The position numbers were made by a program, and so were the translations under genes. From assembly GCA_943787795.1 (NCBI GenBank), contig CALSNU010000001.1, positions 928,001 to 992,000 of the forward strand: a stretch of DNA of 64,000 nucleotides. The letters are read 5' to 3'. Shown here piece after piece: positions 11,662 to 61,114 of this stretch. The notes beneath the pieces were generated by a model. The model worked only from the letters and a program-made list of their open reading frames with translations. It did not search any database and had not been told where the DNA came from. The first letter of the stretch is position 1. The number at the start of each line of letters is the position of its first letter. This stretch comes from an uncultured bacterium. Its GTDB lineage: Bacteria > Planctomycetota > UBA1135 > GCA-002686595.

Positions 11662-11715
11662 ATCCCGAGCGGCGGAGAACGGGGCTCGGCCGGGCGAGGG
11701 CGCTCGCGCCGTTCG

Positions 11716-41785: not shown

Positions 41786-42966
41786 TCGACGCGATCCGCG
41801 GCGCCTTCAGTCGCATTGTCTCCACGGGCCACGTGCGCTGGTCCGAGTTCGCGTGGCCCGTCCTGCTGCTGGCCGCGGGATTGCTCGCCGCGGGGATGAC
41901 GTTCATCTCGGTCATGGCGGCCTCGGCGAGCAACCCCGAGCTGGGGGGCGTCGATTACGAGGGCCACCGCCAGAAGATCCTGGTGGCGTTGCCTGTGTTC
42001 TTCGCAGGCCTCTTCCTTCGACCGAGTTGGCTCAAGCGGAACGCCGCGTTGATCTACTCGGGGTGTCTCGTCCTCCTGGCTCTGGTGCCGTGGATCGGGG
42101 ATGAGCGGAACAATGCAAGGCGCTGGATCCAGCTGCCCAAGTTCGACCTGCAGCCGAGCGAGCTCGCCAAGATCGGGGTCATCCTCATGCTCGCCAGGGT
42201 GCTCCACGAGAACCCCCTGAAGACCGGGCGAGACTGGCTGAAGCCGATGCTGGTGACGGCGGTCCCCATGCTGCTCGTCGCCGCGCAGCCGGACCTCGGG
42301 ACGGCGCTGACCCTGGTGCCGGTGCTGGGGGGGCTGCTCTACCTCGCGGGGGGGAGTGGCCGGGCGCTCTGCGCTCTCGGCCTCGCCGGGATCGCCGCCG
42401 GGGTCGGGGTCTGGCAGAGCGGCCACGTGCAGTCCTACCAGCTCGAGCGGATCGAGACCTGGGTCGAGTCCTTTGACGACCGGGAGCTGATCGCGTCGCG
42501 CAATGGCCTCGGCTTTCACACCTATCACGCGCGGACCTTCACCGGGAACGGAGGCCTCTACGGGCGGGGGCTAGGCGAGGGGGTCGCCAATGAGACGGGC
42601 CTCTTGCCGGAGCGTGACTCGGACTCAATCATCGCGGTGATCGGTGAGGAGTGGGGCTTCGCGGGGACGGCGCTGGTGATCGTCCTCTACGGGCTGATGG
42701 TCGGGCTGCTCATGCTCCACGCCGCCGGGCTCCGGGATCGGTTCTCCAGGCTCGTCGTGGGGGGCGTGGCGATCTACTTCGCCGCGCACCTGTTCATCAA
42801 CGTCTCCGTCAATCTCGGTCTGCTGCCGATGACGGGGCTCACGCTGCCGCTGTTCTCCACCGGCGGCTCCTCGCTCCTCGCGACCTTCCTCGCCCTCGGT
42901 CTGGCGCTCGGGCTCTCGTCCCATCACGAGCGCAGCCTGGGTGGCGACGCCTTCCGGCGGTACTGA
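41782..42966 (+). CDS. rodA: SEDS peptidoglycan glycosyltransferase RodA
   Basis: ARRWI, QPSELAK, QPDLGT, LPERDSD...GEEWGF, PMTGLTLPLFSTGGSS. Confidence 0.94.
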   Translation: MIDAIRGAFSRIVSTGHVRWSEFAWPVLLLAAGLLAAGMTFISVMAASASNPELGGVDYEGHRQKILVALPVFFAGLFLRPSWLKRNAALIYSGCLVLLALVPWIGDERNNARRWIQLPKFDLQPSELAKIGVILMLARVLHENPLKTGRDWLKPMLVTAVPMLLVAAQPDLGTALTLVPVLGGLLYLAGGSGRALCALGLAGIAAGVGVWQSGHVQSYQLERIETWVESFDDRELIASRNGLGFHTYHARTFTGNGGLYGRGLGEGVANETGLLPERDSDSIIAVIGEEWGFAGTALVIVLYGLMVGLLMLHAAGLRDRFSRLVVGGVAIYFAAHLFINVSVNLGLLPMTGLTLPLFSTGGSSLLATFLALGLALGLSSHHERSLGGDAFRRY

Positions 42967-43041
42967 CGAGAGCGTCGATGGGCCCCTGACGGCGTCCGTC
43001 AAGGGCCCGATGGAGCGGGACCGCGCCGCGCACCGCGGGGC

Positions 43042-46000: not shown

Positions 46001-46455
46001 ACGTGGCGGCATCCGCCTTCGATGGCGAAGCGGTCGCAGGAGCACTCAGCGTCCACGAGGCCGCCCCGGCCGACCCGTACGGCGAAGGGCTCGTCCCGGT
46101 CGGTCACCGAGACGGAGAACCCGCGGGTCTCCAGCTGGATCTTGCCCACGAGGTCGCGCCGGGCGAGGCCCTCGCCTCGACCACGCTCGACCCCCTTGAG
46201 ACCCCGCAGCATGGCCTGACGGGTGTCCTGAACGATGGCTCGGAGCTCATCGCTCAGGTTCAGGCTCTCCACGACCTCCGCCAGGGACCCTTCCCCGCCC
46301 TGAGTGTCCCCGCCTTGGGATTCCTCACCCTGGGCTTGGCCCCCCTCGGCTTCGCCGCTCGCCATGTCGGGCGAGGGGGCTGGGTCCAGGGGGGGCTCGT
46401 GCTCGCGTGAGTCCGAGTCGGGGTTCACGGTGGCGTCGCCGGAGTCACTGTTCAT
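43042..46455 (-). CDS. SWIM zinc-finger SNF2-family helicase (paralog A)
   Basis: CSC...CRH SWIM motif; LRPYQ, LADDMGLGKT, DEAQ, SGTPVEN, DPWWNPAVEAQAIDRAHRIG. Confidence 0.95.
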   Translation of the reverse strand: MNSDSGDATVNPDSDSREHEPPLDPAPSPDMASGEAEGGQAQGEESQGGDTQGGEGSLAEVVESLNLSDELRAIVQDTRQAMLRGLKGVERGRGEGLARRDLVGKIQLETRGFSVSVTDRDEPFAVRVGRGGLVDAECSCDRFAIEGGCRHVWAALVVAARQMGLGGWRAERTEVRKDDRERRDFLDAVVEAAGVEEGASPWEALEREAFLRIEYALTIPSPGATAGFSISIRRRRRRADGSWGAALEIGRKDWDDVRMSRSEDIEIVALLDGPGGRGRAVTGYEAPPETWHLGGPGTEAAMRVLVDTERLFLAPSSSEDPDGGSLPAPLSNELDHPWKVRLSLGRDGGEDEPLILTGHLDRGDEHLQLSEVAMVSADGHLIINGALSRLEPMAAAPVTAVLRQRGELKTPAGGESRLRRALAQLGNQVMAPGSIQTGPKVTPLLVVRLPEEEEGSSKMLEADITFVYGSRRVAADTYGWSLEDEAGQVFSRDLEGERAALRTFLDAGGSRKLDPEEEIATARVPAKDIEFLIARLLSEGWDVEADGKSVRSSTGSAASVQSGIDWFDLDGHVSFEGQEVPFPALLAAADRGAKFVTLPDGSRGLLPKDWASRWKLLEVGQTEDGKVRFSKEQGWVLSALLERQASMDAVEMDEPFADLRSLLSEASSPVPMDEPESFVGELRPYQREGLGWLKQLSDLGLGGCLADDMGLGKTVQILAYLLHRTRLSEERRPSLVIAPRSVIFNWRAEAKRFAPDLGVVNYTGANRLEALDSAESPDILLTTYGTLRRDQAELAQIDFDLVVLDEAQAIKNAASQTAAAARGLKARQRLALSGTPVENHLGELGSLLEFLNPGTLEGTRLGQRLRAKGRSARLDDESRDILVRAVRPFLLRRTKDEVLDDLPPKTEQVLECTLDGKQRQDYDEIRQHYRSSFAAAGSRGGVEVLKALLRLRQTSCHPGLIDPTRQGESSAKLDVLLPLVEELVDQGHKALIFSQFTGFLGIVRAALDAKGLRYSYLDGSTRKREAEVNAFQQDPEVPLFLVSLKAGGTGLNLTAADYVFLLDPWWNPAVEAQAIDRAHRIGREHPVHVYRMIASDTIEDRVLELQEKKRDLSSLVLGGAASSLSDLDSDDLQFLLS

Positions 46456-46567
46456 GGGTCTTCAGGCCTCGCTGAGGCCGGCCCCACATTCTGGACACTC
46501 TATGACCGCCGAACCATCAAGTTCCCGCGGGAACCAAAGAGCAAATTGATCGGAGGCCCGAGTCACT

Positions 46568-47905
46568 TCAACGCGACCTGGGCTTCCACAGGGCAAACAC
46601 CAGCCAGCCGACGGCGAGCACTCCCACGCCGAGCATCGTGACCTGGGGTCGTGTCACCACGAGGTTGCCCACCACGATGGCCGCGGCGAGCGCAGCGTAG
46701 GTGGCAGGGAACAGGGGGAACCACAGGCTGCGGAACGGCCGGTCGGGACCGAGGCGTTTGGCGAGGGTGATAAGGGCGAGGCCGGCGAGGCCGTGGAAGA
46801 TCCACTCGGCGAAGACCACGGCGCCGGTGAGCGTGTCCACGTGGGCGGCGTCGTAGGCGCTCCACGCCAGATAGAGGAGCACCAGCACGCACTGGGAGAT
46901 CAGGGCCACCACCGGCGCGCCGGTGCGCGGGTGCATCCAGCCGAAGGCCCGCAGGAAGAGCCCCTCCCTCGCCATGGCCACGTAGATGCCCGGGGTGGTG
47001 ATGAGCGTCGCCACCAGGAACCCGAGGGCCGAGATGGCCATGGCGGCGGTGATGAACGTCGCGCCCACGTTGGCGCCCAGGGCGAGCTCGGCCATGCGGT
47101 TGGCCATGGGCTGATCGGACTGGGCGGCCATGCCCCCGATACCGAGGACGCGCAGGTAGGCGAGGTTCACCAGGAGGTAGATCACCGCCACGCCGGCGAC
47201 GCCCATGACAATGGCCCGTGGCAGGTTGTGCTCGGGGTCCTTGACCGCCGGGGCGATGTAGCTGATGAGCTGCCAGCCCCCGTACGAGAACAGCACGCTC
47301 AGGGAGGCCCCGAGCATGCCGTCCACCAGGCCGTCGGAGGTGCGGTCGGCAGCGGCCACGGCCACCGCCTCGGCCGGCTCGGCGAAGAGGGCCAGGCCGA
47401 AGACGATGAACGTCCCCACGGCCGCGATCTTGAGCAGCATGCAGAGGTTCTGGAAGAGCGCCCCGCTCTTCAGCCCCGCCAGCCCGATCCCCGTCACCAG
47501 CAGGACGATGCCCGCAGCCACGGCGAGCTCACCGCCGTCCCCGAGCCCCGCGAGCTCGGCGACCTGCGCCGAGAAGAAGCGGGCCACCAGGGCGCAGGCG
47601 CCGGTGGAGACCACCAGCAGGACCACCCAGGCGAACAGGAACGACGTCCGTGCCCCGAAGGCCTCGCGGAGGAAGACATACCAGCCCCCGGTGCGAGGGT
47701 AGGCCGCCGACAGCTCGGCGAAGGTCATGGCTCCAGAGAGCGCCGCGAGGGCGCCGAGGCCCCACATGGCGAGGTAGGCGCCGGGCTCGGTGACCTCCCG
47801 GGCGATCTCGGGGGGCGTGAAGAAGATCCCGATGCCGAGGATCCCACCCATGACGAGCATGGTGGCGTCGAAGAGGCTGAGCTTGCGGGTCGCGGCGTCC
47901 GTCAT
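46568..47905 (-). CDS. APC-family amino acid permease
   Basis: GGILGIGIFF, FAELSAAYPRTGGWY, FSYGGW; about 12 TM helices. Start at MTDAAT. Confidence 0.92.
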   Translation of the reverse strand: MTDAATRKLSLFDATMLVMGGILGIGIFFTPPEIAREVTEPGAYLAMWGLGALAALSGAMTFAELSAAYPRTGGWYVFLREAFGARTSFLFAWVVLLVVSTGACALVARFFSAQVAELAGLGDGGELAVAAGIVLLVTGIGLAGLKSGALFQNLCMLLKIAAVGTFIVFGLALFAEPAEAVAVAAADRTSDGLVDGMLGASLSVLFSYGGWQLISYIAPAVKDPEHNLPRAIVMGVAGVAVIYLLVNLAYLRVLGIGGMAAQSDQPMANRMAELALGANVGATFITAAMAISALGFLVATLITTPGIYVAMAREGLFLRAFGWMHPRTGAPVVALISQCVLVLLYLAWSAYDAAHVDTLTGAVVFAEWIFHGLAGLALITLAKRLGPDRPFRSLWFPLFPATYAALAAAIVVGNLVVTRPQVTMLGVGVLAVGWLVFALWKPRSR

Positions 47906-47909
47906 GGCA

Positions 47910-50900
47910 TCAGGTGAGAAGGAACTCGAGGTCGTCGGGGCCAAGGTCGGAGAGGGTCGTGGCGGCTCCCTCCAGGGCGGTCCTCGCGAGCTCGGACTTG
48001 CGGTCCTGGAGCTCGACCACGCGGGCCTCGACCGTGCCCTCGGTGAGGACGCGGTAGACGTGGACCGGCCGGGTCCGACCGATCCTGTGGGCGCGGTCCA
48101 CGGCCTGGGCCTCGGCGGCGGGGTTCCACCAGGGATCCATCAGGAACACATAGTCGGCCGCGGTCAGGTTGAGGCCGGCGCCGCCGGCCTTGAGGCTGAT
48201 GAGGAACACGCAGCCCTCCGCGGCCGTCTGGAAGCGCTCGACCACGGCGCCGCGGTCCCGGGTGGCACCCTCGAGGACGTGGTAGGGGATGCGCGCGGTC
48301 TCGAGCCGAGTCCGGATGAGGCCGAGCAGCCGGGTGAACGAGGAGAAGACGATGGCCTTGCGTCCGCTGGCCACGAGCTCCTCGAGCATCGGCAGCAGGA
48401 GGTCGAGCTTGCCCGAGCTCTCGGCCACGAGGGATGGATCGACGAGCCCGGGGTGGCAGGCGGCCTGACGCAGCCGGGTCAGGGCCGAGAGCACGTGCAC
48501 CTCCACCTCGCCGGGGTTCTCAAGCCGCTCCTTGCGTCGCTGGCCCTTGCTCTTTGAGAGCTCGGCTCGGAAGTACCTGGAGAGGTCCTCGTAGGTGGTG
48601 CGCTGGGCGTCGCCCATGGGGGCGCTCAGGACCTGTTCGACCTTGGGCGGGAGGTCGGGGAGCACCGCGTCCTTCGTGCGACGGAAGAGGAAGGGGCGCA
48701 GGGCCTTGGCCATGAGGTCGCGCCCCTCCTCCGGGAGGGCGTGGCGGCCCCGCGGAGCGCCCAGGCTCGCGAAGGCGGCGTGGGCCCCCAGCATCCCGGG
48801 GTTGAGGAACTCCAGCTGGGACCACAGGTCGCCCAGGTGGTTCTCCATGGGAGTGCCCGAAAGTGCCAGCCGGCGGCGCGCCCGCAGCGCCCGTGCGGCG
48901 AGGGCGGTCTGGCTGCGGCGAGAGCGGATCGCCTGGGCCTCATCGAGGACCAGGACGTCGAGCTCGGTCTCCTCAACCTGGGTCGCGTCTCGGCGCAGGG
49001 TGCCGTAGGTGGTGACCAGGAGGGAGCCAGGCTTGGCCTGGTCGAGCCGCGTCCAGCGGTCGGGGCCCGTGAAGTCCAGGGTGGCGAGGGTCGGGGCGAA
49101 GCGCGCGGCCTCGTGGAGCCAGTTGAACACCAGGGAGCGCGGGGCGACCACCATGGAGTGTCGACCCTCGCTGCTGGAGGTCCGGCTCAGGAGGTAGGCC
49201 AGGACCTGCACGGTCTTGCCGAGGCCCATCTCGTCGGCGAGGCAGCCCGAGAGGCCGACCCGGTCGAGCGACAGCATCCAGCCGAGCCCCTCCCTTTGAT
49301 ACGGACGCAGCTCCCCTCGGAACTCCGGCGGGGGGGCAGCGGCCACGGGGGCCCCGAGGATTCCGAGCTGCTGGCGGAGGCGAGCGAAGGGCTCGTCCAC
49401 CTCGGCCGCCCGTTGCTCCGCGAGCGCGGCCACGGCCCATGCCTGGGAGGTGTCGAAGCGGACGCCCCCCTCGATCTCCTCCCCGAGCGCGGCGAGCTTC
49501 CAGCGCTCGAGCCAGCGTTCGGGCAGCAGCCCACGTGAGCCGTCACCCAGCTCCACGAAGCCGCGCTCGTTTCGCGCGGCGTCGAGGGCGGCCGGGAAGG
49601 GGACCTCCTCGTCTCCGAAGCGGACGGCCCCCACGAGGTCGAACCAGTCCACGCCGGTGCGGACCGAGAGGTTCACCGACCCCAGGCCCCGGATCACCTG
49701 ATCCCGGGCGGTGACTTGCCAGCCTTCATCCACGAGGGTGCCGACCATTCCGAGGAACTTCCCACCGGGGACCGCGGCGGCGGCTCCGGACCCGCTACCC
49801 GCGGCGCGCCCACCGAGCTCACGGAAGCGGAGGATCGCCGCGGCCTCGAACAGGGGTTGGCGGGGGACCGAGCGGCCCTCGAGGCCGGGCACGACCTTCG
49901 TGCGGTCGTCGGGCCGGACCCTCGTCCCCGAGTAGTCGAAGGTGACCTCGCACTCCACGCGCGCTTCACCCCCGGACTCGAGGGGAGCCTCCGCCCGCAA
50001 GCACGGCACCGGGCGCGGCGGCTCGGCGATCTCTGCCAGCCGAGGGCCGACCAGGGTCGCGGTCCCCGCGATGGCGGAGAGGCTCGGGGCCTCCTCTGCG
50101 GGGAGCTCAAGGGGCCCGGTGGAGAGCTCCAGCACGACGGCGGTCGCCTCGCCGGCCGGGAGCTTCAGGAGCTGCCAGGACCCGCGCAGGATGCACAGCC
50201 CGTCATGGGTCACCCTCGAGACCTCCTCGGCGCGGACGCGCTCCTTCTTGCCGAGGACGAGGCTGGCGTGCACGCGCCAGAGCGCGCGGGACTCGTCCTC
50301 GGCCTCGAGCTCGAGCCCGACGACCTCCTGGAGCTGGAGCCTGATGGGTTCTGGGGGCCCGCCGGAATCAGGGGTCACGAGGAGCGGCGCCGCGGCGGCC
50401 GCCGCCTCGAGGAGCGGGCGCGCGACGTCGCGCGTTACCGAGGCCACGGTCACGCCTCGGTGGGTGGGGTCCCTTCGCCACCCCGCGTCGCTCGCTCCGC
50501 TGGCCACGGCAGCGACCGCGGCATGGGCGGGCCCGAGGAGGGAGAGGTCCACGTCCCCTGCGTCCGCGCCGGAGAACGGGATGGGGACCCAGCTGGCCTC
50601 GGGCCCTCCTCGCTGGACCTGACATTCCAGGCGAGCCTCGAGCCCCTGTCGCCGCTCACCGAAGCGCAGCATGTAGCGGACCTCGATCGTGGCGGGGTCG
50701 GGAGCACGCCAGGGATCGAGGCGCCGGCCGCCCCCAGCCTCGATGCGATGGGTCACACGTTCCAGCCGGGTGAGCCAGCGGGGGGCAGAGCGATCCTGGG
50801 CTCTGGGTGCCTCTTCCTCGTCCAGCGCGGCCAGGGTGGCCTCGAGCAGGGCGACCGCGTGTGGGCAGGTGCCCCGGCGGCGAAAGTCCGCGCAGGGGCA

Positions 50901-51149
50901 GCGGGCGGTGCCCGGATCCTCCCAGTGCAGCTCGATCCGGATCGCCTGTCCCTCATCATCACAGACGGCCGCGGCCCCCCGCTTGTCCACCGAGACGGCC
51001 GTCAGGTGGGCGCCCGCGACCATGCGCCGTGCGCGCTCGCGGACCCGCGCCGTCGCATCTCCCCTGAACTGAGCCAGGAATCGACGCGCCTGGGTCTGGA
51101 TGCTGGCCCGGTCCGAGGGGCTGAGGGGGCGGGGATCAGGGGACGGCAT
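47910..51149 (-). CDS. SWIM zinc-finger SNF2-family helicase (paralog B)
   Basis: CPC...CPH SWIM motif; LADEMGLGKT, DEAQ, SGTPMEN, DPWWNP...DRAHRIG. Start taken at MPSPDP, 7 nt after a TACACT box. Confidence 0.94.
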   Translation of the reverse strand: MPSPDPRPLSPSDRASIQTQARRFLAQFRGDATARVRERARRMVAGAHLTAVSVDKRGAAAVCDDEGQAIRIELHWEDPGTARCPCADFRRRGTCPHAVALLEATLAALDEEEAPRAQDRSAPRWLTRLERVTHRIEAGGGRRLDPWRAPDPATIEVRYMLRFGERRQGLEARLECQVQRGGPEASWVPIPFSGADAGDVDLSLLGPAHAAVAAVASGASDAGWRRDPTHRGVTVASVTRDVARPLLEAAAAAAPLLVTPDSGGPPEPIRLQLQEVVGLELEAEDESRALWRVHASLVLGKKERVRAEEVSRVTHDGLCILRGSWQLLKLPAGEATAVVLELSTGPLELPAEEAPSLSAIAGTATLVGPRLAEIAEPPRPVPCLRAEAPLESGGEARVECEVTFDYSGTRVRPDDRTKVVPGLEGRSVPRQPLFEAAAILRFRELGGRAAGSGSGAAAAVPGGKFLGMVGTLVDEGWQVTARDQVIRGLGSVNLSVRTGVDWFDLVGAVRFGDEEVPFPAALDAARNERGFVELGDGSRGLLPERWLERWKLAALGEEIEGGVRFDTSQAWAVAALAEQRAAEVDEPFARLRQQLGILGAPVAAAPPPEFRGELRPYQREGLGWMLSLDRVGLSGCLADEMGLGKTVQVLAYLLSRTSSSEGRHSMVVAPRSLVFNWLHEAARFAPTLATLDFTGPDRWTRLDQAKPGSLLVTTYGTLRRDATQVEETELDVLVLDEAQAIRSRRSQTALAARALRARRRLALSGTPMENHLGDLWSQLEFLNPGMLGAHAAFASLGAPRGRHALPEEGRDLMAKALRPFLFRRTKDAVLPDLPPKVEQVLSAPMGDAQRTTYEDLSRYFRAELSKSKGQRRKERLENPGEVEVHVLSALTRLRQAACHPGLVDPSLVAESSGKLDLLLPMLEELVASGRKAIVFSSFTRLLGLIRTRLETARIPYHVLEGATRDRGAVVERFQTAAEGCVFLISLKAGGAGLNLTAADYVFLMDPWWNPAAEAQAVDRAHRIGRTRPVHVYRVLTEGTVEARVVELQDRKSELARTALEGAATTLSDLGPDDLEFLLT

Positions 51150-51252
51150 CTGGCACAGTGTAGACGCAGGGCGGCTCCGTGCCGCGCGCTGGTCGGTCGC
51201 AGCCTTCCGTGTGAGGATCTCGTCCGGACCGGCCAGCAACCCGGGGACCTCG

Positions 51253-51281
51253 TTGCCCGTTGATGGGGCCAGCCCTAGACT
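51253..51281 (+). promoter_or_regulatory. Putative sigma70 promoter of the BMC operon
   Basis: TTGCCC-N17-TAGACT, 75 nt upstream of the first shell gene, which has an AGGAG RBS. Confidence 0.55.
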
Positions 51282-51355
51282 TATCGTCCGCATTCCACCG
51301 TGGAGGCCCAGGCGCCGCCGCGACCCCATCTCTCGACGAGCCAGGAGCTCTACCC

Positions 51356-51679
51356 ATGGCGAACCCCGCCGCGACCTCGAGGAAGCCGATGGCCCTCGGC
51401 ATGGTCGAAACCAAAGGACTGGTCGGTGCCATCGAGGCTGCCGACGCCATGGTCAAGGCCGCGATGGTCGAGCTCAGCGGACACGAGCGTGTCTCCGCAG
51501 GGCTCGTGACCTTCTTCGTTCAGGGCGAAGTCGGCGCCGTCAAGGCGGCGACTGACGCCGGAGCGGCGGCCGCTCGCCGGGTCGGCGAGCTCGTCAGCGT
51601 GCACGTGATCCCGCGCCCGCACGACCAACTGTGCAAGATCCTGCCGGAGATGCGCCCGACCTCGGGCGCCTCCAGCTGA
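51356..51679 (+). CDS. BMC hexamer shell protein (BMC-H, EutM/PduA-like)
   Basis: [24 protein letters not shown]...GEVGAVKAA...VHVIPRPH. Confidence 0.97.
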
Positions 51680-51716
51680 TCGAACCCGGGGGCTCTTGCG
51701 GCCCCCCTGAACGATC

Positions 51717-53639
51717 TTGAAGGGCCTCGATCCGGACCTGCGTGCCTTGCAAGAGGTGCGCGACGCTGTCTCCCGCGCGAAAGCCGCGCAGGAGGTGGCG
51801 GCCTCGTGGACGCAGGAGCAGACGGATCGAGTGTGCGCCGCGATGGCGGCGGCCGCCGCGGCCGCGGCCCACGACCTCGCGCGGCTCGCCGTGGACGAGA
51901 CCGGGATCGGGCGCGTCCACTACAAGATCCTGAAGAACCTGTTCGGTTCAGAGGGCGTCTGGGACTCCATCCGCGACGAGCGGACGGTGGGCTTCGTGGA
52001 GCGCGACGACCGCCGCGGCGTGCATGAGGTTGCGACGCCGGTGGGCGTGGTGGCGGGCATCGTCCCGACCACGAACCCGACGTCCACGTCCATGTACAAG
52101 GCGCTGATCTCGGTGAAGGCGCGCAACGCCGTGGTCATCAGCCCGCACCCCCGGGCCAAGCGCTGCATCGCGGAGACCTGCGAGATCATGCGGCGCGCGA
52201 TCGAGCGCGCAGGGGGGCCGCCCGACCTCGTCGTGTGCCTCAATCACCCGACGATCGAGTCCACGGGCGCGCTCATGAAGCACCGCGACGTGGCCGTCAT
52301 CCTCTCCACCGGCGGCAGCGGCCTGGTGCGCGCGGCCTACTCCAGCGGCAAGCCCGCTTACGGCGTGGGGCCCGGGAACGTGCCGTGCTACGTGGACCGC
52401 TCCGCCGATCTCGGCAAGGCGGCTGAGGCGGTGGTGTCCAGCCAGAGCTTCGACAACGCGACGCTGTGCTGCTCCGAGCAGGCGCTGGTGCTCGACCGGC
52501 CGATCGCCCAGCGCTTCCTCGCGGAGATGCAGGCGCGCGGGGCCCACGTCGCCACCGACGCCGAGCGCAAGCGGCTCGAGGCCTTCTGCAACCGCGGCGG
52601 CCAGATGAACGCGGACATCGTCGGCATCGACCCCTGGCGGGTCGCCGATCAGGCGGGCTTCCATGTGCCCCAGTCGACCACGGTCCTGCTCGCCTTCCAA
52701 GACGGCGTCGGGCGAGATCACCCGCTCTCCATCGAGATCCTCTGCCCGCTCCTCTCCGTGCACGTGGTCGACGGCTGGGAAGAGGGCTGCCGGGTCTCGA
52801 AGCAGATGCTTCACTTCGGCGGGCTCGGGCACACCATGAGCCTCCACGCCATGGACCAGGAGGTGCTCGACTCCTTCTTCCTGCAGAAGCCCGCGAGCCG
52901 GATTGTTGCGAACGGGCCCTCCTCGATGGGGGCCGTGGGCTTCTCCACCAACCTGGTCCCGTCCTTCTCCCTGGGCTGCGGTCCGCAGGCGGGGAACATC
53001 ACGAGCGACAACATCTCCGCTCGTCACCTGGTGAATATCAAGCGCGTCGCGTTCCCGACGGGCGACTGGAAGGAGCGTGAGCGCAAGGCCCACGAGCGCG
53101 CGGCCTCCATGACCGGCGCCGGGATGCCTCGCGGGTCGATGATGGATGGAGACCCGGGCCACCGGGGGTCCACCGCGCCGGTCCCGAACCTGCCGGCGGC
53201 CCCCGCGCCGACCCCTCGGGTCCCCGGGGGGACCTCGTTCACGCCCCCTGCTCCCCCTGTCGTGAGCGCTCGTCCGGCGGCCCCCGCACACCGTCCCGCT
53301 CCTCCGGTCGTGAAGGCCCCCGCTGCGCGGCCCGCCGCTTTGGCCCCGGCCGGTCCCGACCCCACGAAGGTCGGCGGCCTCGGCTCGGCGCCGCGCTTCA
53401 CGTCCGATCGACCGGCTGCGGCTGGATCTGCGGCTGGATCTGCGGCTGGAGCCGCCGGCAGAGCGGCCGCGCCCCAGGCCCCGGCAGCGCCTCCGGCCAG
53501 GCCCCAGGCCGAGTCGGGCGTCTCCCTCTCCTCCTCGGAGATCGAGAAGATGCTCGAGAATGCCGGCGCTGGCTGCCCGCTCGGCCCGTGCCAGGGCTGC
53601 CCGCACCACGACGTCCAATCCCACACGTGCACCGCCTGA
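51717..53639 (+). CDS. CoA-acylating aldehyde dehydrogenase (AdhE-N/EutE/PduP-type) with Pro/Ala linker and Cys-rich tail
   Basis: [38 protein letters not shown], catalytic [16 protein letters not shown]...GNITSDN; TTG start. Confidence 0.93.
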
Positions 53640-53682
53640 TCGCGGACACGTCTTTCCCTGAACCGAATCTACAAGTCATCCC

Positions 53683-53964
53683 ATGGCTACTGAATCCCAG
53701 ATCGCCCTCGGCCTGATCGAGACCAAGGGTCTCGTCGGCTCCGTCGAGGCCGCTGACGCGATGTGCAAGGCCGCCAAGGTCACGCTCCTCTCCAAGGAGA
53801 AGTCCGGCGCAGGCCTCGTCACCGTGATGGTGCGCGGCGAGGTCGGCGCGGTGAAGGCCGCGACCGAGGCCGGCGCTGCCGCTGCCCGCCGCGTCGGCGA
53901 GCTCGTCAGCGTGCACGTCATCCCGCGTCCGTCCTCGGACCTCGAAGGCTACCTGCCCGAGTAG
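53683..53964 (+). CDS. BMC hexamer shell protein (BMC-H)
   Basis: [24 protein letters not shown]...VHVIPRP. Confidence 0.97.
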
Positions 53965-53971
53965 GCCGTAC

Positions 53972-54622
53972 TTGTCCGGAACGCTTCATGCCGTGGAGCT
54001 CCGCGGTGCGGTTCATCTCGACCAGATGCAGCCGCAGCTCACCGCGATCAGCGCCCTGAAGTCGGACGGCTACTTCCCCGTGGAGGGGGATAGCGCGTTC
54101 TGGCTAGAGGTGCGCCCCGGCATCGTGGTGAATCGGCTGCTCGACATCGCGCTCAAGCGCTGCGACGTCACGCCCGGAGCGCTCACCACCGAGCGTCACT
54201 ACGGCAGCCTCGAGGTGCACGGTCCGGACCAGGGCCAGGTCCTCCAGGCGGGCGCCGAGGTGCTCAAGGCGATCGGGCGCAGCTGGGCCGACCAGCCCGC
54301 GCCGGAGGTGCTGGCCGACGAGGTCATCCGCAAGGTCACCTCGCACCACGCCAACCTCCTCAACCAGGCCAGGGCCGGCATGCTGGTCCTCGGGGACGAC
54401 GCCGTCTACACCCTGGAGGTGTCGCCCGCCGTGCACGTGGTGCGCTGCGCCAACGAGGCCGAGAAAGCGGCCCCGATCCGGATCGCGTCCATGCGCACCA
54501 CCGGCGCGGTCGGCCGGCTTCGACTGGCCGGCGGCGACGCCGAGATCGACGAGGCTGTCAAGGCCGTGCGTCGCGCCCTCGAGACCGTCCGAGAGGACCC
54601 CAGCCGGGCGGGAGGGCGCTGA
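53972..54622 (+). CDS. BMC trimer shell protein, double-stacking permuted type (BMC-Tdp, CcmP/CsoS1D-like)
   Basis: LDQMQPQL, LEVRPG, ERHYGSLEVH..DQG.V, ANEAEKAA, GAVGRLRLAG; TTG start. Confidence 0.88.
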   Translation: MSGTLHAVELRGAVHLDQMQPQLTAISALKSDGYFPVEGDSAFWLEVRPGIVVNRLLDIALKRCDVTPGALTTERHYGSLEVHGPDQGQVLQAGAEVLKAIGRSWADQPAPEVLADEVIRKVTSHHANLLNQARAGMLVLGDDAVYTLEVSPAVHVVRCANEAEKAAPIRIASMRTTGAVGRLRLAGGDAEIDEAVKAVRRALETVREDPSRAGGR

Positions 54623-54624
54623 TC

Positions 54625-54948
54625 ATGTTCCTTGGACGCGTCGTCGGGCAGGTCTGGGCTACGCGAGAGGTGGAAGACCTCAGGGGTAAGCGACTGCTGG
54701 TGATCGAGGCCGTCGACGACGCCTCGGACCCTGGTGCGCCCAAGGTCACGCCGGTCATCGCCGTGGACCCGGTCGGCGCGGACGTTGGCGAACACGTCAT
54801 GGTCGCCTTCGGCAAGGCCGCCCGGGTGGCATGCGGCGGCGATGGGGATCTCGCCTACGAGGCCGCCATCGTGGGCATCGTGGATGACGTCCACGCCCCG
54901 GGTGCGCCCGAGTCGTGGAGGCCCGAGTCGGCCAGGGGGCGCGCCTGA
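54625..54948 (+). CDS. BMC pentamer vertex protein (EutN/CcmL family)
   Basis: MFLGRVVGQVWAT, IAVDPVGADVGEHV, AAIVGIVD. Confidence 0.96.
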   Translation: MFLGRVVGQVWATREVEDLRGKRLLVIEAVDDASDPGAPKVTPVIAVDPVGADVGEHVMVAFGKAARVACGGDGDLAYEAAIVGIVDDVHAPGAPESWRPESARGRA

Positions 54949-55259
54949 TGCACGTCGCCACCGTCATCGGCTCTGTCTGGGCCACGAAGAAGGACGCCTC
55001 GCTCGATGGCCTGCGGCTGCTCGTCGTCCGCCCTTACACCACGGACGGCAAGCCGTCCGCCGAGACCATGATCGCTGCCGACCCGATCGGCGCGGGGGAG
55101 GGCGAGCGAGTCCTCGTCGTGCACGGTCGAGCGGCGCGGCACGCCATAGGCAAGGGCCACGACATCGGCTTTCAGACGGCCGTCGTGGGCATCATCGACC
55201 GGATGGATCTCTCCGATGGCCGAACCGTCGGCCCGCACGTCGACTTTGACGAGGGCTGA
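54948..55259 (+). CDS. Second BMC pentamer vertex protein (EutN/CcmL family)
   Basis: MHVATVIGSVWATKK, AADPIGAGEGERV, AVVGIID. ATG overlaps the previous TGA. Confidence 0.96.
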   Translation: MHVATVIGSVWATKKDASLDGLRLLVVRPYTTDGKPSAETMIAADPIGAGEGERVLVVHGRAARHAIGKGHDIGFQTAVVGIIDRMDLSDGRTVGPHVDFDEG

Positions 55260-55331
55260 CCCGGCCCGGCACAGAACAGCGCACAGAACACCCGACTCCA
55301 GGATTCAGCAAACGCACGGGGACGACCCGCC

Positions 55332-55929
55332 ATGCAGAACAACGACCACAATCCGACGCTCTCCGGAGCGGAACTGCAGCCCGCCATCGCGCTGCTCGAG
55401 ACCGCGAGCGTCGCGGCCGGGATCGAGATGACGGACGCGATCCTCTGGGAGTCCGACATCGAACTCCTGTTCGCCACGCCCGTCCAGCCCGGCAAGTACG
55501 TGGTGCTCTTCACCGGAAGCATCGAGGACCTGCGCAGCGCCCTGCGGCGCGGGGCCGAGGTGGCCCGTGGGGACCTCGTCGACCAGCTGCTGATCCCCCA
55601 GGTGGAGGCGGGCGTCTGCGAGGCGCTGCGCCGCCAGGGGCAGCCGCTCCCGGACGGCGAGCTGGACGCGGTCGGGGTGGTGGAGACCACCACCGTCGCC
55701 GCCAGCATCCTCGCCGCCGACATTGCCCTCAAGGAGGCGAGCGTCGACCTGCTCGACCTGCGCGTGGCCAACGGGCTCGGCGGGAAGAGCTTCCTGACGA
55801 TCACCGGCGAGGTGAGCGACGTGCGGAGCTCGGTGCAGGGCCGCCGCTGGCAGCGCGGACTCCTCCGGGCGCCTCGCCCGTCACGTGGTCATCCCGCGTC
55901 CGCACCCCGAGCTCTCGGCGCACCTCTGA
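55332..55929 (+). CDS. PduT-like tandem-domain BMC-T shell protein; apparent +1 frameshift at GGG 55838-55840
   Basis: AIALLETASVAAG, PGKY, GLGGK. Removing one G restores the canonical end QAAAGSADSSGRLARHVVIPRPHPELSAHL* (198 aa). Confidence 0.9.
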
Positions 55930-55955
55930 TCCCTCGAGGTCGGGCGGAGTGATTC

Positions 55956-56250
55956 ATGGCGTCGAGGAAGAAGCTCGTGACGGAGGCGGACGTGCGGCGC
56001 ATGGCGTCCGGCACGCGCGAGCTTGTCCTTGGCCCCGAACGGATCGCGACCCCCCGCGGCCCTCGACCTCGCCTTCTCCAGGGGCATGAAGGTGATCTAC
56101 GCGGAGGCCGACGCGGCGTCTCCGCTTCCCAGCGATCTGTGGTCGCGCATCAAGTCCAGGGACGGCACCTACGTCGTCCAGGTCGAGAGCGGACGGGCCA
56201 CCGTCACGCGGCTCGGCCCGGCCGGCCCCGAGCCCATCGGCGGAGAGTGA
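55956..56250 (+). CDS. Small BMC-associated protein with EutQ/EutT N-terminal-like module; apparent +1 frameshift in C6 run 56050-56055
   Basis: Joining the two overlapping ORFs gives KKLVTEADVRR...IATPAALDLAFSRGMKV...(97 aa). Confidence 0.75.
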
Positions 56251-56257
56251 ACGAGCT

Positions 56258-56758
56258 ATGACCAAGAGATTCCTGACAGCTGAGGACGTCCGGCGACTCG
56301 GCGGCCCCGAGATCCTCCTCGAGGAGGGGACCGTCGTGACGCCCCAGGCCGCGGAGGCGGCGGCCACCGCGGGCGTCCGCCTCATTGGCCCCGCGGGCGC
56401 TTACGCGCCGCCGCTCCCCGACAGGGGACCGGACGCGGCGCGGGCCAAGGCGACCCTGCCCCACCTCCCCGAGCCCTCGACCACCGATGGCATCGGGCTG
56501 GTGGTGACCGTCGTCGGGCGCAACCGACCCGGCGTCCTCGCCGAGATCACGGCCGCCCTCGCGTCCCACGAGTGCGACGTGGCGGACATCAGCCAGCGCA
56601 ACGTCGGCGGCTACTTCCACACGGTGTTCACCTGCGCCGTGCCCCCCGGACGAGACTTCGGTTCGGTCAAAGACAGCCTCCAGTGCCTCGGCGGGGAGGG
56701 CGACTACGTCGTCCGCGTCATGCACGAGAGCGTCTTCCGCTTCATGCACCGCGTCTAG
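56258..56758 (+). CDS. ACT-domain protein (UPF0237-like) fused to an N-terminal EutQ/EutT-like module
   Basis: N-terminal [10 protein letters not shown]...[10 protein letters not shown]...GVRL; C-terminal [17 protein letters not shown]...DISQ...GYF...[11 protein letters not shown]. Confidence 0.88.
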
Positions 56759-56771
56759 CGGAGGACCCACG

Positions 56772-58137
56772 ATGCCGTTCACCGACCACGAGATCCTCGA
56801 GACCGTCCGGATGTTCGAGCTGGAGACGTTCGACATTCGAACGACCACGCTCGGCATCAACCTGCTCGACTGCGCTGACCCGGACCTGGAGTCGTCGTGC
56901 GAGAAGGTCTACGCCAAGATCGTGCACCACGGTCGCAACCTGGTGGAGACGGCGGGCAGCATCGAGTCGGACCTGGGCATCCCGATCATCAACAAGCGGG
57001 TCGCCACCACGCCGATCGCGCTGGTCGCGGCGGCCTCCGGCTCGAAGGACCTCGTCCCCTTCGCGCGCGCCATGGACGCGGCCGCCGAGGAGATCGGGAT
57101 CGACTACATCGGCGGCTACACCGCGTACGTGCACAAGGGCTACTCCAACGCCGACCACGCCCTGCTGGAGTCCATCCCCGAGGCGCTCGCGTCCACCGCG
57201 CGCGTCTGCTCCTCGGTCTCCCTCGCGACGACCAAGGCCGGGATCAACATGGACGCGGTCTCGCACTTCTCGAAAGTGGTCCTCGACACTGCGCGTCTCA
57301 CCGCGAGCGAGGGCGGCCTGGGCTGCGCGAAGCTGGTCTGCTTCTCCAACCCGGTGGAGGACAACCCGTTCATCGCCGGCGCCCACATCGGCATCGGCGA
57401 GCCGGAGACGGTCCTCAACGTCGGGGTGTCCGGCCCCGGCGTGGTGCGCTCGGCCCTCGAGCGCCTCGGCCCCGACGCCGACCTGCTGGCGGTCGCCGAG
57501 ACCATCAAGCGCACGGCCTTCAAGATCACCCGCATGGGCGAGCTCGTGGGCCGCGAGGCCGCGCGCCGGCTGGGGACCGTGTTCGGCATCGTCGACGTGT
57601 CCCTCGCGCCGACTCCCGCGGTGGGGGACTCGGTGGCGGACATCCTGGAGCTCATCGGGGTGGAGCGGACCGGCGCGCCGGGCACCACCGCCGCCCTCGC
57701 GCTGCTCACCGACGCCGTCAAGAAGGGGGGGGCCATGGCCTCGTCCAGCGTCGGCGGCCTCTCCGGGGCGTTCATCCCGGTGTCCGAGGACGCGGGGATG
57801 ATCCAGGGCCGTGGCGGACGGCGCCCTGAGCCTCGCGAAGCTCGAGGCCATGACGACCGTGTGCTCGGTCGGCCTCGACATGATCGCGGTCCCCGGGGAC
57901 ACCAGCCAGGCGACGCTCGCGGGCATCATCGCGGATGAGATGGCGATCGGCATGGTCAACCAGAAGACCACCGCCGTGCGCGCGATCCCGGTGCCCGGCA
58001 AGAGGCCCGGGGAGACCCACGACTGGGGCGGGCTGCTCGGCACCGCGATCGTCCAGGACCCCGGGAGGTTCGGCAGCGAGGTCTTCCACTCCCGCGGCGG
58101 GCGGATCCCCGCGCCGCTCCAGAGCTATCGGAACTGA
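56772..58137 (+). CDS. PFL-fold protein DUF711/UPF0210; apparent +1 frameshift at GGG 57806-57808
   Basis: [55 protein letters not shown]. After the shift: [15 protein letters not shown]...RGGRIPAP. Corrected length 454 aa. Confidence 0.92.
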
Positions 58138-58141
58138 GGGA

Positions 58142-58498
58142 GGAGACGGTCGCGCCGGTCCTCGGGCGCCCGAGGACTCCCGCTCCGGCCCGGGGCTCGT
58201 CCCCCTGCTCTGGGGGAGCCTCGTCCTCGTGGCGGCGGCGCTGGCCCTGGCGATCAAGGACATGAGCGGGGCCAACCGGCCCCACGAGCTCACCCTCTCC
58301 CCGCTGGTCGCGCTGCTGCTGCTCGTGAACGGTGGCGTGTTGGTCGCGGCCATTCGAGTGCACGGTCAGCGCCTCGCGCGGCGGCGAACCGTCCTGCGAG
58401 GCCTGCAGCACGGGGGGCTCTGGCTGTACGCCGCCGTCTGCGCGCTGCTCCTGGTCATCGCCACCGCCACGGCGATCGACGTGTTCCTCGCTCGCTAG
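58142..58498 (+). CDS. Possible small three-TM membrane protein (start codon not identifiable)
   Basis: Three hydrophobic helices in one frame ending at TAG 58498. A GGAGGAG motif follows the DUF711 stop, but no in-frame start lies next to it. Confidence 0.45.
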   Translation, partial: GDGRAGPRAPEDSRSGPGLVPLLWGSLVLVAAALALAIKDMSGANRPHELTLSPLVALLLLVNGGVLVAAIRVHGQRLARRRTVLRGLQHGGLWLYAAVCALLLVIATATAIDVFLAR

Positions 58499-58657
58499 GT
58501 CACCGGCCACGGGGCGCGTTCCGGCGCGCTGGCTCCGGGGAAGTCGTCCGCTCATGAGACCCTGGCGGCGCGGGTGCGTGCCCGGGTCCACGGTTTCCCG
58601 AGGGGCGCCTACGATGGCGTCGTCCCCGCTCCCCTCAGAGTCCCCAGCTCCAGCGCC

Positions 58658-61114
58658 ATGCGTCACTCCCTGCACCTCGCCGCCGCGTCCGCCCTCGTCC
58701 TCGCTCCGCTCGCCGCAGCGCCCCAGGGCGAGGGGCCGGGGCAAACCGATGCCGACACGCGCATGCGCCTGTACGGGGAGCACCTCGACCTGGTGTCGGG
58801 CTCTCCCCATGGGGACCTCAACTGGCAGTTCGCCGGCCCGACGAACATCAGCGGCCGTATCACTGACGTGGCGGTCACGAGCCCGCGGGGCGAGACCTAT
58901 ACGCTGTACGTCGCGGGCGCGTCCTCCGGCGTCTGGAAGTCCATCAACGAGGGGGTCTCATGGGAGTGCGTGTTTGACGAGGCGCCCAGCATGTCGATCG
59001 GCGACGTGACCCTGGACCCCTCGAACCAAGAGACGGTCTGGGTCGGCACGGGCGAGGCCAACATCTTCCGCAGCTCAATGGCCGGCGCCGGGGTCTACCG
59101 CTCGCTGGACGGCGGGGCGACCTGGGAGCACCGCGGCCTCGCGGAGACGCACACGATCGCGCGCATCGTCGTGCACCCCGGCGACTCCGACACGGTCTAC
59201 GTGGCCGCCTCCGGCAACGAGTGGACCTCGAACCCCGAGCGCGGCGTGTACCGGACCCGGGACGGCGGCGAGAACTGGATCCAGGTCCTCTCCGTGGACG
59301 ACGAGTCCGGCGCCATCGACCTCGTGCTCGACCCCGCGGACCCCGACACGGTCTACGCCTCGACCTGGCAGCGCACGCGACAGCGCTGGAATGACCCCCG
59401 CAACACCCCGACCACCGCCGGGAGCGGCATCTGGCGCAGCGACGACGGCGGCGACAGCTGGAGCCCCATCAACGAGGGGCTCCCGGAGCCGCGCTTTCGC
59501 GGCCGGATCGGGATCGACCTGTGCGCTTCGCAGCCAGAGACGATCTACGCCTTCGTCGACAACTACGAGCTGGGCGAGGTCGGCGAGGATGAGGTCGACT
59601 CCTACAACCGCAAGCGCAAGGCCTCGATCAAGGGCGCCGAGGTCTACCGCTCCGATGACAGCGGCGCCTCGTGGCGCCGGGTGTCGGAGTCCAACGAGAC
59701 CATGCGTCGGCTCTCCGCGACCTACGGCTGGGTCTTCGGCCAGCTGCGCGTCGATCCGACCGACCCCGAGCGTGTCTACGTCATGGGGCTTGGCCTCAAC
59801 GTCTCGGAGGACGGCGGCAAGACCTTCCGTCGGCTGCGCGGCATGCACGGAGACCACCACGCGCTCTGGATCGACCCCGAGAACCCGCGCTACCTCGTCA
59901 ACGGCAATGACGGCGGGGTCGCCATCTCCTACGACGGCGGCGAGCGCTGGCGCACCTTCTACGACAACCTCCCGCTGGCGCAGTTCTACAACGTGGGCCT
60001 CGACATGGCGGAGCCGTTCCGCGTGTACGGGTCCGTCCAGGACCACGGGTCCTATCGGGCGGAGGTCGATCTCCGTCGAGGCCGCGACCGCGTACGCGCG
60101 GTGGACTTCGAGCGGGCGCCGGGCGGTGAGGCCAGCTATCACGCCGTGGATCCCACGGACGCCGACGTGGTCTACCACGAAGGCTTCTACGGATCGATCC
60201 GCCGCGCTCACATGGAGAGCGGAGAGCGCGTGACCCTCGACCTCCCGGTGGCGGATGGGGAGGAGGATCTACGCGGCCAGTGGTTGGCCCCCTTCCTGAT
60301 CTCCCACCACAACCCGCGCATCATCTACCACGGCATGAACAAGGTCTTCCGCTCCCTCGATCGGGGGGAGAACTTCGAGGCCATCAGCCCGGACCTCTCC
60401 TTCGCCAGGGACGAGCGCAAGGGGGACATCCCGTTCCAGACCATCACGACGCTAGCAGAGTCACCGCAGCGCTTCGGGGTGTTGTACGCGGGGACGGACG
60501 ACGGGCGCCTTCACATGACCGGCGACAGCGGCGCCACCTGGACCGAGCTCGGTGACCGCTTCGCGCCGGACCGAGCCTTCTCCAGGGTCGAGGCCTCGCG
60601 CCACACGGAGGGCGTCATCTTCGCCGCCCAGAACGGCAAGCGGAACGAGGACTTCACGCCTTACCTCTGGATGTCTCACGACCACGGTGAGACCTGGCGC
60701 AGCATCGCGGGAGGGGTCCCCCTCGGTCCGATCAATGTCATCCGCGAGGACCCGAAGAACCCGCAGGTGCTCTACGTCGGCACCGACCTGGGCGTCTATG
60801 TGTCGTCCGATCGCGGGGGGAGCTGGGACGCGCTGGTGGCCGGGCTGCCCAACACCTTCGTCCATGATCTCGCGGTGCACCCCCGCGATGACGTTCTCGT
60901 GGCCGGGACGCACGGCCGGGGCGTCTGGGTCCTCGATGTCCGTCCGATCCAGGACCCGGAGGCCGCTCGCGCGGCTCGAGAGGCGGCCGAAGCCGCCGCG
61001 GCTGAGGCTGCGGCCTCGGACGGGGACGAGGAAGACCAGGAGGAAGAGGAGGACCCTGCCGAGGAAGAGGCGGCCGCCGCGCGGGCCCGTGCGGCGGGTG
61101 GCGCTGGAGCCTGA
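58658..61114 (+). CDS. Secreted BNR/Asp-box beta-propeller protein (VPS10/sortilin-like, often annotated glycosyl hydrolase)
   Basis: Signal peptide, GPTNISGRI, many SxDGGxTW Asp-boxes, HGDHH, GTHGRGVW; acidic tail. Confidence 0.9.
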   Translation: MRHSLHLAAASALVLAPLAAAPQGEGPGQTDADTRMRLYGEHLDLVSGSPHGDLNWQFAGPTNISGRITDVAVTSPRGETYTLYVAGASSGVWKSINEGVSWECVFDEAPSMSIGDVTLDPSNQETVWVGTGEANIFRSSMAGAGVYRSLDGGATWEHRGLAETHTIARIVVHPGDSDTVYVAASGNEWTSNPERGVYRTRDGGENWIQVLSVDDESGAIDLVLDPADPDTVYASTWQRTRQRWNDPRNTPTTAGSGIWRSDDGGDSWSPINEGLPEPRFRGRIGIDLCASQPETIYAFVDNYELGEVGEDEVDSYNRKRKASIKGAEVYRSDDSGASWRRVSESNETMRRLSATYGWVFGQLRVDPTDPERVYVMGLGLNVSEDGGKTFRRLRGMHGDHHALWIDPENPRYLVNGNDGGVAISYDGGERWRTFYDNLPLAQFYNVGLDMAEPFRVYGSVQDHGSYRAEVDLRRGRDRVRAVDFERAPGGEASYHAVDPTDADVVYHEGFYGSIRRAHMESGERVTLDLPVADGEEDLRGQWLAPFLISHHNPRIIYHGMNKVFRSLDRGENFEAISPDLSFARDERKGDIPFQTITTLAESPQRFGVLYAGTDDGRLHMTGDSGATWTELGDRFAPDRAFSRVEASRHTEGVIFAAQNGKRNEDFTPYLWMSHDHGETWRSIAGGVPLGPINVIREDPKNPQVLYVGTDLGVYVSSDRGGSWDALVAGLPNTFVHDLAVHPRDDVLVAGTHGRGVWVLDVRPIQDPEAARAAREAAEAAAAEAAASDGDEEDQEEEEDPAEEEAAAARARAAGGAGA

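Follow-up and report, generated by a model that had tools for sequence, protein, structure and literature searches.

The DNA analysed here is a stretch of 64,000 nucleotides (the window) from an uncultured bacterium of the Planctomycetota (assembly GCA_943787795.1, contig CALSNU010000001.1, positions 928,001 to 992,000), and at positions 51356-58137 it carries a bacterial microcompartment (BMC) operon that ends in genes for an ACT-domain protein and a DUF711 (UPF0210) protein. We identify the operon as the main locus of an already catalogued planctomycete metabolosome, the MIC3 type, and not as a new BMC type. The ACT/DUF711 pair is built into it, with an N-terminal module on the ACT subunit, and we consider it moderately probable that the pair, also named GlyXS/GlyXL, is among the cargo of the organelle. 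The literature searched, in which UPF0210 papers were covered by titles and abstracts, yielded no paper that connects DUF711, UPF0210 or GlyXL with microcompartments; one paper naming DUF711 treats it only as a fold family beside ribonucleotide reductases (RNRs) and pyruvate formate-lyase (PFL), and a second does not use the term in its main text.

Pfam and NCBIfam searches confirmed the gene order given in an earlier note on this DNA, which had described a tightly packed, same-strand operon running from BMC-H to DUF711. The window has a GC content of ~70%, and the spacing within the shell operon ranges from a 1-nt overlap up to 72 nt. The ten genes are:

51356..51679, + strand, BMC-H, first copy (PF00936, E 6.7e-27; 68-98% identity in related loci by tblastn)
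51717..53639, + strand, CoA-acylating aldehyde dehydrogenase (AldDH), 640 aa (PF00171; EutE-like TIGR02518 519 bits, under the cut-off of 620)
53683..53964, + strand, BMC-H, second copy (PF00936, E 7.6e-28)
53972..54622, + strand, BMC-Tdp, a CcmP-like tandem-domain trimer (PF00936 weak, 23.2 bits; NF053796 CcmP 186 bits over model positions 3-202 of 213, below the cut-off of 340)
54625..54948, + strand, BMC-P, first of the operon's two (PF03319, E 1.3e-22)
54948..55259, + strand, BMC-P, second (PF03319, E 2.1e-27), its ATG sharing one base with the preceding stop
55332..55952, + strand, PduT-like BMC-Ts (two BMC domains, E 1.4e-32; TIGR02526 PduT 100 bits, below the cut-off)
55956..56261, + strand, small accessory protein (EutQ/EutT-like N-terminal module, linker and small beta domain), matched to no family by the Pfam search
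56258..56758, + strand, GlyXS-like ACT fusion, 166 aa (Pfam ACT at residues 81-142)
56772..58137, + strand, GlyXL-like DUF711/UPF0210 protein (PF05167, split over two frames), the sole copy in the genome

In the available parts of the 2021 BMC catalogue (Sutter 2021, Nat Commun, PMC8217296), MIC3 comprises 11 loci, all from Planctomycetes, and its function, like that of several other catalogued types, is unassigned. Its main locus holds two BMC-H, two BMC-P, one BMC-Ts and a CcmP-clade BMC-Tdp together with a pfam04909 amidohydrolase; its AldDh ends in a long flexible linker and a domain of ~40 aa in which four cysteines are conserved; and a satellite with a BMC-P triplet and a pfam00596 aldolase brings the pentamer genes to five in total. 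The operon in the window has this same shell set (two BMC-H, two BMC-P, BMC-Ts and a CcmP-like Tdp), a comparison made on Pfam and NCBIfam models and not on tree clades, and related loci belong by title to the Planctomycetota, including Saltatorellus ferox Poly30. In the translated AldDH, the Aldedh core is followed by ~170 aa rich in Pro and Ala and then by a C-terminal domain with four cysteines (4-Cys), and the 4-Cys tail motif is kept in 58/58 related AldDH genes, which encode proteins of 597-678 aa. The source genome (4.71 Mb in 8 contigs, 84.9% complete) contains exactly five PF03319 matches and four BMC-domain matches, and a satellite of three PF03319 genes and a class II aldolase (PF00596, E 1.8e-43) lies ~77 kb upstream of the operon (G000:C1, ~900.8-902.5 kb). 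As in MIC3, phosphotransacylase (PTAC/PduL) was not found in this genome, which is incomplete, and the catalogue's table of hidden Markov models (HMMs) already includes an ACT model named for ACI and MIC3. Unlike the shell set, the DUF711, the small protein and the N-terminal module go unmentioned in the catalogue text available; '05167' and 'DUF711' are absent from its main text and seven supplementary files, and two further archives may list all locus genes.

The earlier note had taken the operon for a BMC type that it did not recognise. That view gives way to the MIC3 match, which includes the 4-Cys AldDH tail and the aldolase satellite; an already catalogued type and a conventional enzyme elsewhere in the genome are two outcomes that the note itself had named as refuting, and both were found. 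Its statement that conventional partner enzymes are lacking holds for the 64-kb window, in which Pfam-based annotation gave no PduL, aldolase, alcohol dehydrogenase or kinase, but not for the genome, where the class II aldolase and the BMC-P triplet form the satellite. This aldolase is a candidate for the conventional signature enzyme and aldehyde source. An apparent N-terminal extension on it was rejected, the long open reading frame (ORF) arising from a spurious start at an upstream TTG; the protein probably begins at a Met ~137 residues in. An assignment of the locus to the HO type, prompted by the high GC content and the shell genes, was also considered and rejected. The planctomycete/verrucomicrobial PVM metabolosome (fucose/rhamnose), compared here by its described gene content, is found in the same phylum and likewise has a class II aldolase as aldehyde source with an acylating AldDH; here, by contrast, the aldolase sits in a satellite, the core is without PTAC, and ACT and DUF711 are present.

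Full-length relatives of the ACT fusion number more than 650. A profile scan of genome contigs with the ACT-fusion alignment A1 gave 144 confirmed loci, and the following counts come from the best 80 of the 144, nearly all from metagenome-assembled genomes (MAGs) of Planctomycetota, plus the isolate S. ferox Poly30, which has the same intact operon (L024). The flanks of these 80 loci were examined by tblastn with the window proteins. BMC-Ts lies directly 5' of the ACT fusion in 75/75 loci whose upstream DNA extends for at least 1 kb, and AldDH and BMC-P are both found in 59/59 loci with at least 5 kb. Where at least 1.5 kb of downstream DNA is available (71 loci), 48 have DUF711 next to the ACT fusion (<300 nt), 7 have it at a distance of 0.9-5.2 kb, and in 16 it falls outside the available flank; nine loci with shorter downstream DNA were excluded from this count, five of which show the DUF711 start. 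Ten of the 16 genomes without a flanking DUF711 were searched, and all ten have one full-length DUF711 elsewhere, in four cases apparently on the same contig at a distance of 16-45 kb (contig identity inferred from numbering). In none of these ten genomes does that DUF711 have an ACT gene within 1.5 kb. Downstream of ACT, the loci without an adjacent DUF711 have neither the MIC3 amidohydrolase nor any other enzyme conserved in its place; the genes at that position are unrelated and differ between loci.

The same association was seen in a survey of the phylum, in which an even sample of 401 Planctomycetota genomes was searched and the coordinates cross-tabulated by hand. DUF711 was found in 54 of these genomes, a BMC-Ts homolog in 100 and an A1 match in 67. 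BMC-Ts is present in 37 of the 54 DUF711-positive genomes, and in 28 of the 54 DUF711 lies no more than 1.3 kb from BMC-Ts, spread over eight families (f1, f24, f25, f33, f63, f68, f75 and f95); in two further genomes the distance is 6 and 17 kb. The order AldDH-H-Tdp-P-P-Ts-ACT-DUF711 repeats in f63 and f25 at merely 33-48% ACT identity, and f24, f75 and f95 have the shorter unit Ts-ACT-DUF711. The proposal in the earlier note that the ACT/DUF711 pair was drawn into a microcompartment operon is thereby borne out by synteny in at least eight planctomycete families, and the adjacency is not unique to this genome; uniqueness to it was among the outcomes that the note had listed as refuting. A quick maximum-likelihood tree was built from 51 DUF711 sequences: 30 BMC-linked (27 beside shell genes and three from genomes in which the operon is present but DUF711 lies apart from it), 15 free-standing, three of unknown context and three divergent paralogs as outliers. 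The sequences group by family, and the BMC label changes 3 times, against a shuffled mean of 16.3, with 0/500 shuffles as low.

Other arrangements were also seen. One locus with no ACT or DUF711 (L131; G154:C89, 7729-12567) has a gene for a PduS-like flavoprotein between BMC-Tdp and BMC-Ts and, two genes past BMC-Ts, a serine hydroxymethyltransferase gene, another glycine-related enzyme at the same operon position. A third arrangement of these parts occurs in family f59 (G076:C1, ~1.847-1.853 Mb), where ~5 kb separates a short ACT gene from BMC-H genes and DUF711 is 128 kb away.

The ACT subunit is the ordinary DUF711 partner with ~80 extra N-terminal residues. Residues 80-166 form a UPF0237-type ACT domain that aligns end to end with SP0238 (1ZPV; E 2.7e-5; fold TM 0.84) and matches the UPF0237 equivalog NF001220 over model positions 4-90 of 90 with 58.3 bits, below the cut-off of 74. 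Residues 1-44 are modelled as a folded beta-alpha-beta-beta-alpha-beta module, with a pLDDT of 83-93 over the first ~45 residues and of 86 for the whole model. The region after the module is less confident and has one helix; it carries a linker motif (residues ~50-75; PDRGPDA..A...LPHLPEP, window 56400-56480) that is invariant in the 17 sequences of alignment A1, of 58-86% overall identity. This is more conservation than a passive tether needs, and the linker may therefore be a second binding site.

The same module forms the N-terminus of the small protein (hhalign of A1 against A2: Prob 96.9, E 1.9e-10, 49 columns), for which a second, independent model shows identical beta-alpha-beta-beta-alpha-beta topology; when the ACT fusion and the small protein of Poly30 are compared by BLASTP alone, the match is marginal (E 0.015). 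Outside these loci, hhalign with A2 weakly relates the module to the N-terminus of E. coli K-12 EutT (E 2.5e-5, Prob 75) and, with A2 and A1, to EutQ residues 2-52 (E 1.1e-3, Prob ~20; EutD control E 0.11), in each case against a single target sequence. NCBIfam matches of 16 small proteins, all weak, are to proteins of BMC operons only: eut_hyp in 3/16, EutT in 2/16 and PduM in 1/16. Pfam searches with the small proteins and the module gave only a weak PDU_like match in 2/16 sequences (E ~0.01), and a Foldseek search of the PDB with the ACT-fusion model returned ACT domains only, leaving the N-terminal module unmatched. A classical encapsulation peptide, a terminal amphipathic helix of ~18 residues, was not seen; the models show a folded module of ~45 residues.

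As in EutQ and EutT, the module starts at residue 2-3, has the motif K-x-[LI]-[TI]-x-x-D-[VI]-R ... [IV]-x-T-P-x-A ... G and is followed by a flexible region; unlike in those proteins, its passenger is ACT and not a cupin or adenosyltransferase. According to the available parts of two papers, the EutQ N-terminus is required for EutM binding in vitro (Held et al. 2016, PMC4827028), its helices H1 and H2 bind the shell, residues 1-99 are enough to target GFP and a second N-terminal region binds cargo peptides (Yang et al. 2025, PMC12487888). By analogy, the module is a putative shell-docking module of the ACT protein; shell binding is a feature of EutQ, to which the module has a weak sequence likeness.

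The extension on the ACT protein follows BMC context, and free-standing pairs in BMC-less genomes are without it. In genomes with adjacent BMC-Ts and DUF711, the A1 match is full length in 24/28 and starts from residue 19 in one; in the other three, all of family f25, it covers the ACT part only, and in two of them the module is found on an ORF of its own that lies between Ts and ACT. In genomes of f88 and f98 the A1 match begins at residues 71-77 and the ACT-DUF711 pair is free-standing (L122, L123); the three of these genomes that were tested (99% complete) are without any BMC domain. Shell genes are present elsewhere in two genomes whose long ACT lies on a short contig (G260, G075), and one with a partly extended ACT (G189) gave no BMC match at 85% completeness. 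A comparable protein is noted for FRAG4 of Marinimicrobia, in a different phylum and a fragmented locus, where a C-terminal ACT of ~90 aa follows a BMC-specific N-terminal domain in the only non-shell protein noted in the accessible catalogue text (PMC8217296).

Past the module, the small protein has a variable linker, Cys-rich in some relatives (CSCGGSCGKC in L031), followed by a helix and a three-strand meander. The small gene occurs only in loci with at least 300 nt between Ts and ACT, and homologs of its module also follow BMC-Ts in genomes without ACT/DUF711 (G032, G272, G302).

DUF711 corresponds to GlyXL and its ACT partner to GlyXS (Price et al. 2026, PLoS Genet, PMC13759103). In the parts of that study available, both proteins are needed for glycine-free growth of Bifidobacterium breve and Methanococcus maripaludis, the Bifidobacterium genes rescue an E. 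coli glyA mutant in air, and the product predicted for the pair is glyoxylate, to be converted to glycine by a transaminase. The catalytic residues of glycyl-radical enzymes are reported not to be conserved in GlyXL, which is active in air, and its modelled pocket in the B. breve protein comprises R22, R75, R403 and E339 (PMC13759103). Microcompartments are not mentioned in the main text of the paper. Glyoxylate is an aldehyde, and the guess in the earlier note that DUF711 is an aldehyde-making enzyme with an ACT subunit thus now has outside support, the product itself still being a prediction.

The pair studied here agrees with GlyXS-GlyXL (1ZPV, 2HA9) in being adjacent on the same strand, in an ACT domain that aligns over its whole length and in a DUF711 above the equivalog cut-off (NF003700 681 bits, cut-off 440, and 2HA9 at E 3.2e-158 for the intact ortholog of L011). 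R23, R76, E339 and R403 are invariant in 23 planctomycete DUF711 sequences (A3), the mapping to the B. breve pocket being by numbering and motif only. The pair studied here differs from GlyXS-GlyXL in the N-terminal extension of ACT and in its place at the 3' end of a shell operon. A complex prediction for ACT and DUF711 gave a median score of 0.59 (runs 0.59, 0.51 and 0.61; best control 0.00), with predicted contacts in at least 72% agreement and a partner pLDDT of at least 70. The mark used for such scores is reached by 116/157 solved complexes and 2/215 mismatched pairs, and at 0.60 or below by 18 of the 157 and both passing mismatches; the prediction lends weak support to an ACT-DUF711 contact.

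The locus type, the synteny, the homology of ACT and DUF711 and the shared, context-dependent module are the observations behind the explanation that we find moderately probable, namely a MIC3-type main locus with the GlyXS/GlyXL pair among its cargo. The N-terminal module would attach the ACT protein to the shell from the lumen side, as EutQ H1/H2 do, and DUF711, which has no extension of its own, would ride in bound to the ACT domain. Inside the shell, DUF711 would make or use glyoxylate beside the acylating AldDH, and the AldDH could handle glyoxylate, for example by oxidation to oxalyl-CoA, alongside the aldehyde released by the aldolase, so that the organelle may handle one aldehyde or two. 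DUF711 would then be an accessory or second signature enzyme of an organelle sub-lineage and not the defining enzyme of a new type. A bolder version, which we regard as unlikely, is that MIC3-like organelles with the module are glyoxylate metabolosomes, in which GlyXL is docked via the ACT module, AldDH runs to oxalyl-CoA or in reverse and ACT serves as anchor and amino-acid sensor. If true, it would be the first function assigned to an orphan BMC type, lend independent support to glyoxylate as the GlyXL product and imply a portable folded targeting domain common to EutQ, EutT, the small protein and GlyXS.

Several findings weigh against placing the pair inside the organelle. DUF711 is an ordinary ortholog with no extension and no BMC-specific change, the formation of glyoxylate by GlyXL is itself predicted, and any activity of the AldDH on glyoxylate is purely conjectural. 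The likeness of the module to EutQ is weak, operon membership alone is no proof of encapsulation, which we infer, and the DUF711 gene is broken in this assembly. Unlike the catalogued MIC3 main locus, the operon has no pfam04909 amidohydrolase in or near it: the window has no PF04909 gene, and the two copies in the genome lie on contigs C2 and C6. In the quick tree, for which the earlier note had called, BMC-linked DUF711 copies do not form one clade, and the deep nodes are unsupported, so that the tree is compatible with a single recruitment as well as with several. DUF711 is absent from 63 of the 100 BMC-Ts-positive genomes, and eight DUF711-less BMC-Ts loci that were inspected, one of them from the window's own family, have no ACT/DUF711 match (0/8) and no two-BMC-P set (0/8); most consist of H-AldDH-H-Tdp-Ts or part of it, the operon ending at or soon after BMC-Ts. 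ACT and DUF711 are missing together in these loci. Related shell operons without the pair show that the organelle family does not depend on DUF711, which is a conserved but dispensable addition to it.

The broken DUF711 gene is one of three distal genes that carry frameshifts private to the window. Comparison with four relatives (L011, L013, L015 and L016; 88-94% DNA identity) and Poly30 revealed three +1 insertions of G or C, all in short G or C runs, at 55838 (BMC-Ts), 56050 (small gene) and 57806 (DUF711). The insertion at 55838 throws the last ~30 residues of BMC-Ts out of frame, and the relatives' frame would stop at 55927-55929 (frames compared with L011, L018 and Poly30). That at 56050 shifts the small gene, which in the relatives' frame encodes 97 aa with a stop at 56248-56250, and that at 57806 splits DUF711 near residue 346, with the PF05167 profile matching positions 1-333 in one frame and 336-412 in another. 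This two-frame split had been missed in the earlier note. Orthologs of all three genes are intact in all relatives examined. Contigs from runs X3 and X5, which belong to different studies and are at least 99% identical to the window, lack all three insertions, and contigs from run X1 carry those at 56050 and 57806 and break at 55839. X1 is the best match to the window among the runs and may be its source sample, and is therefore not independent. Contigs from the RNA run X15 cover parts of the small gene and DUF711, with none spanning the indel sites, and are not proof of transcription.

The three frameshifts may be a shared assembly or technical error, or strain-level decay of the distal operon. 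Decay, by which the pair would be non-functional in this strain whatever its role in relatives, is a real possibility to which we give somewhat less than even credence: three insertions hit three consecutive genes within 2 kb, two of them recur in X1, and the remaining coding stretches compared (46.4-62.4 kb) showed no private single-base indel of this kind. On the other hand, single G/C additions in short runs that are missing from the otherwise near-identical X3 and X5 contigs also fit a shared technical error, X1 adds little if it is the source sample, and 84.9% completeness in 8 contigs would fit an indel-prone assembly. One competitor to a cargo role is that ACT and DUF711 are co-regulated cytosolic neighbours that feed or drain the pathway (for example glyoxylate <-> glycine) without being targeted, the module serving oligomerisation or ligand sensing. 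A plain biosynthetic role of DUF711 beside the operon may indeed apply: DUF711 is a standard ortholog, it lies away from the operon in 16/71 loci and is still kept in the genomes searched (10/10), and the Bifidobacterium GlyXS-GlyXL genes restored growth of an E. coli glyA mutant in the available account (PMC13759103). Because the genome also has glyA, glycine need not come from GlyXL alone, and a parallel cytosolic route is plausible. We nevertheless think co-regulation alone unlikely, because the ACT extension occurs with shell genes and is missing in BMC-less genomes, the same module recurs on a second small protein of the operon, and its only database likenesses, weak as they are, are to the BMC-operon proteins EutT, EutQ, PduM and eut_hyp.

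If the ACT fusion were instead a EutQ-like adaptor, gluing cargo to shell or sensing amino acids at the shell, DUF711 could be hitch-hiking as an ancestral neighbour. The ACT fusion is fixed at the operon end (75/75) where DUF711 adjacency is looser (48/71), the linker is invariant as might suit a region like the second, cargo-binding one of EutQ (PMC12487888, in the part available), and in FRAG4 the sole non-shell protein listed is an ACT protein, the accessible text naming no enzyme (PMC8217296). We judge this very unlikely, given that all ten tested genomes without an adjacent DUF711 keep exactly one full-length copy with no ACT partner of its own alongside, that ACT and DUF711 are jointly absent in a genome of the same family (G407), and that the ACT domain retains the UPF0237 signature to its C-terminus. 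Highly improbable, in our view, is the strict reading of the earlier note, by which DUF711 is the aldehyde-generating signature enzyme of an unrecognised BMC type. The main operon does have no other enzyme besides AldDH, GlyXL is predicted to form an aldehyde, glyoxylate (PMC13759103, available part), and the association spans eight families; but the type is already catalogued as MIC3, whose ACT model stands in the available HMM table, an aldolase satellite lies in the same genome, and related shell operons are without DUF711.

Under the cargo explanation, the locus ties together two questions, as GlyXL has a genetic phenotype but its reaction is not established and MIC3 has no assigned function. 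The pair in a metabolosome operon of at least eight families, with a context-bound candidate docking module, suggests that the organelle handles glyoxylate, and its place in such an operon suggests that the GlyXL reaction has an intermediate worth sequestering. The testable parts are a targeting role of ACT residues 1-50 and the use of glyoxylate by the AldDH, and S. ferox Poly30, which is cultured and has the intact operon, makes such tests feasible.

At the position that we take to be that of the PduT Fe-S cysteine loop, the BMC-Ts reads ATPVQPGKY, with no cysteine, and no PduS homolog is present in the window. A promoter and terminator scan of 51000-58700 returned zero sites, which is uninformative at 70% GC. 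Downstream, the operon is followed by a sortilin/BNR protein. In the window at 866-14066 there are long ORFs (1744, 417, 156, 548 and 670 aa) with coding-like GC3 and no Pfam family at E <= 1e-4. The opposite strand upstream (region 35171-51329) encodes two SNF2 helicases and an amino-acid permease, followed by rodA, pbp2, mreC and mreB; the helicases (1137 and 1139 aa) are paralogous and have the permease between them. The shell operon is beside this mreB-mreC-pbp2-rodA cluster, from which the helicases and the permease separate it in the window, and in three distant relatives (L126, L127 and L130) rodA directly adjoins it.

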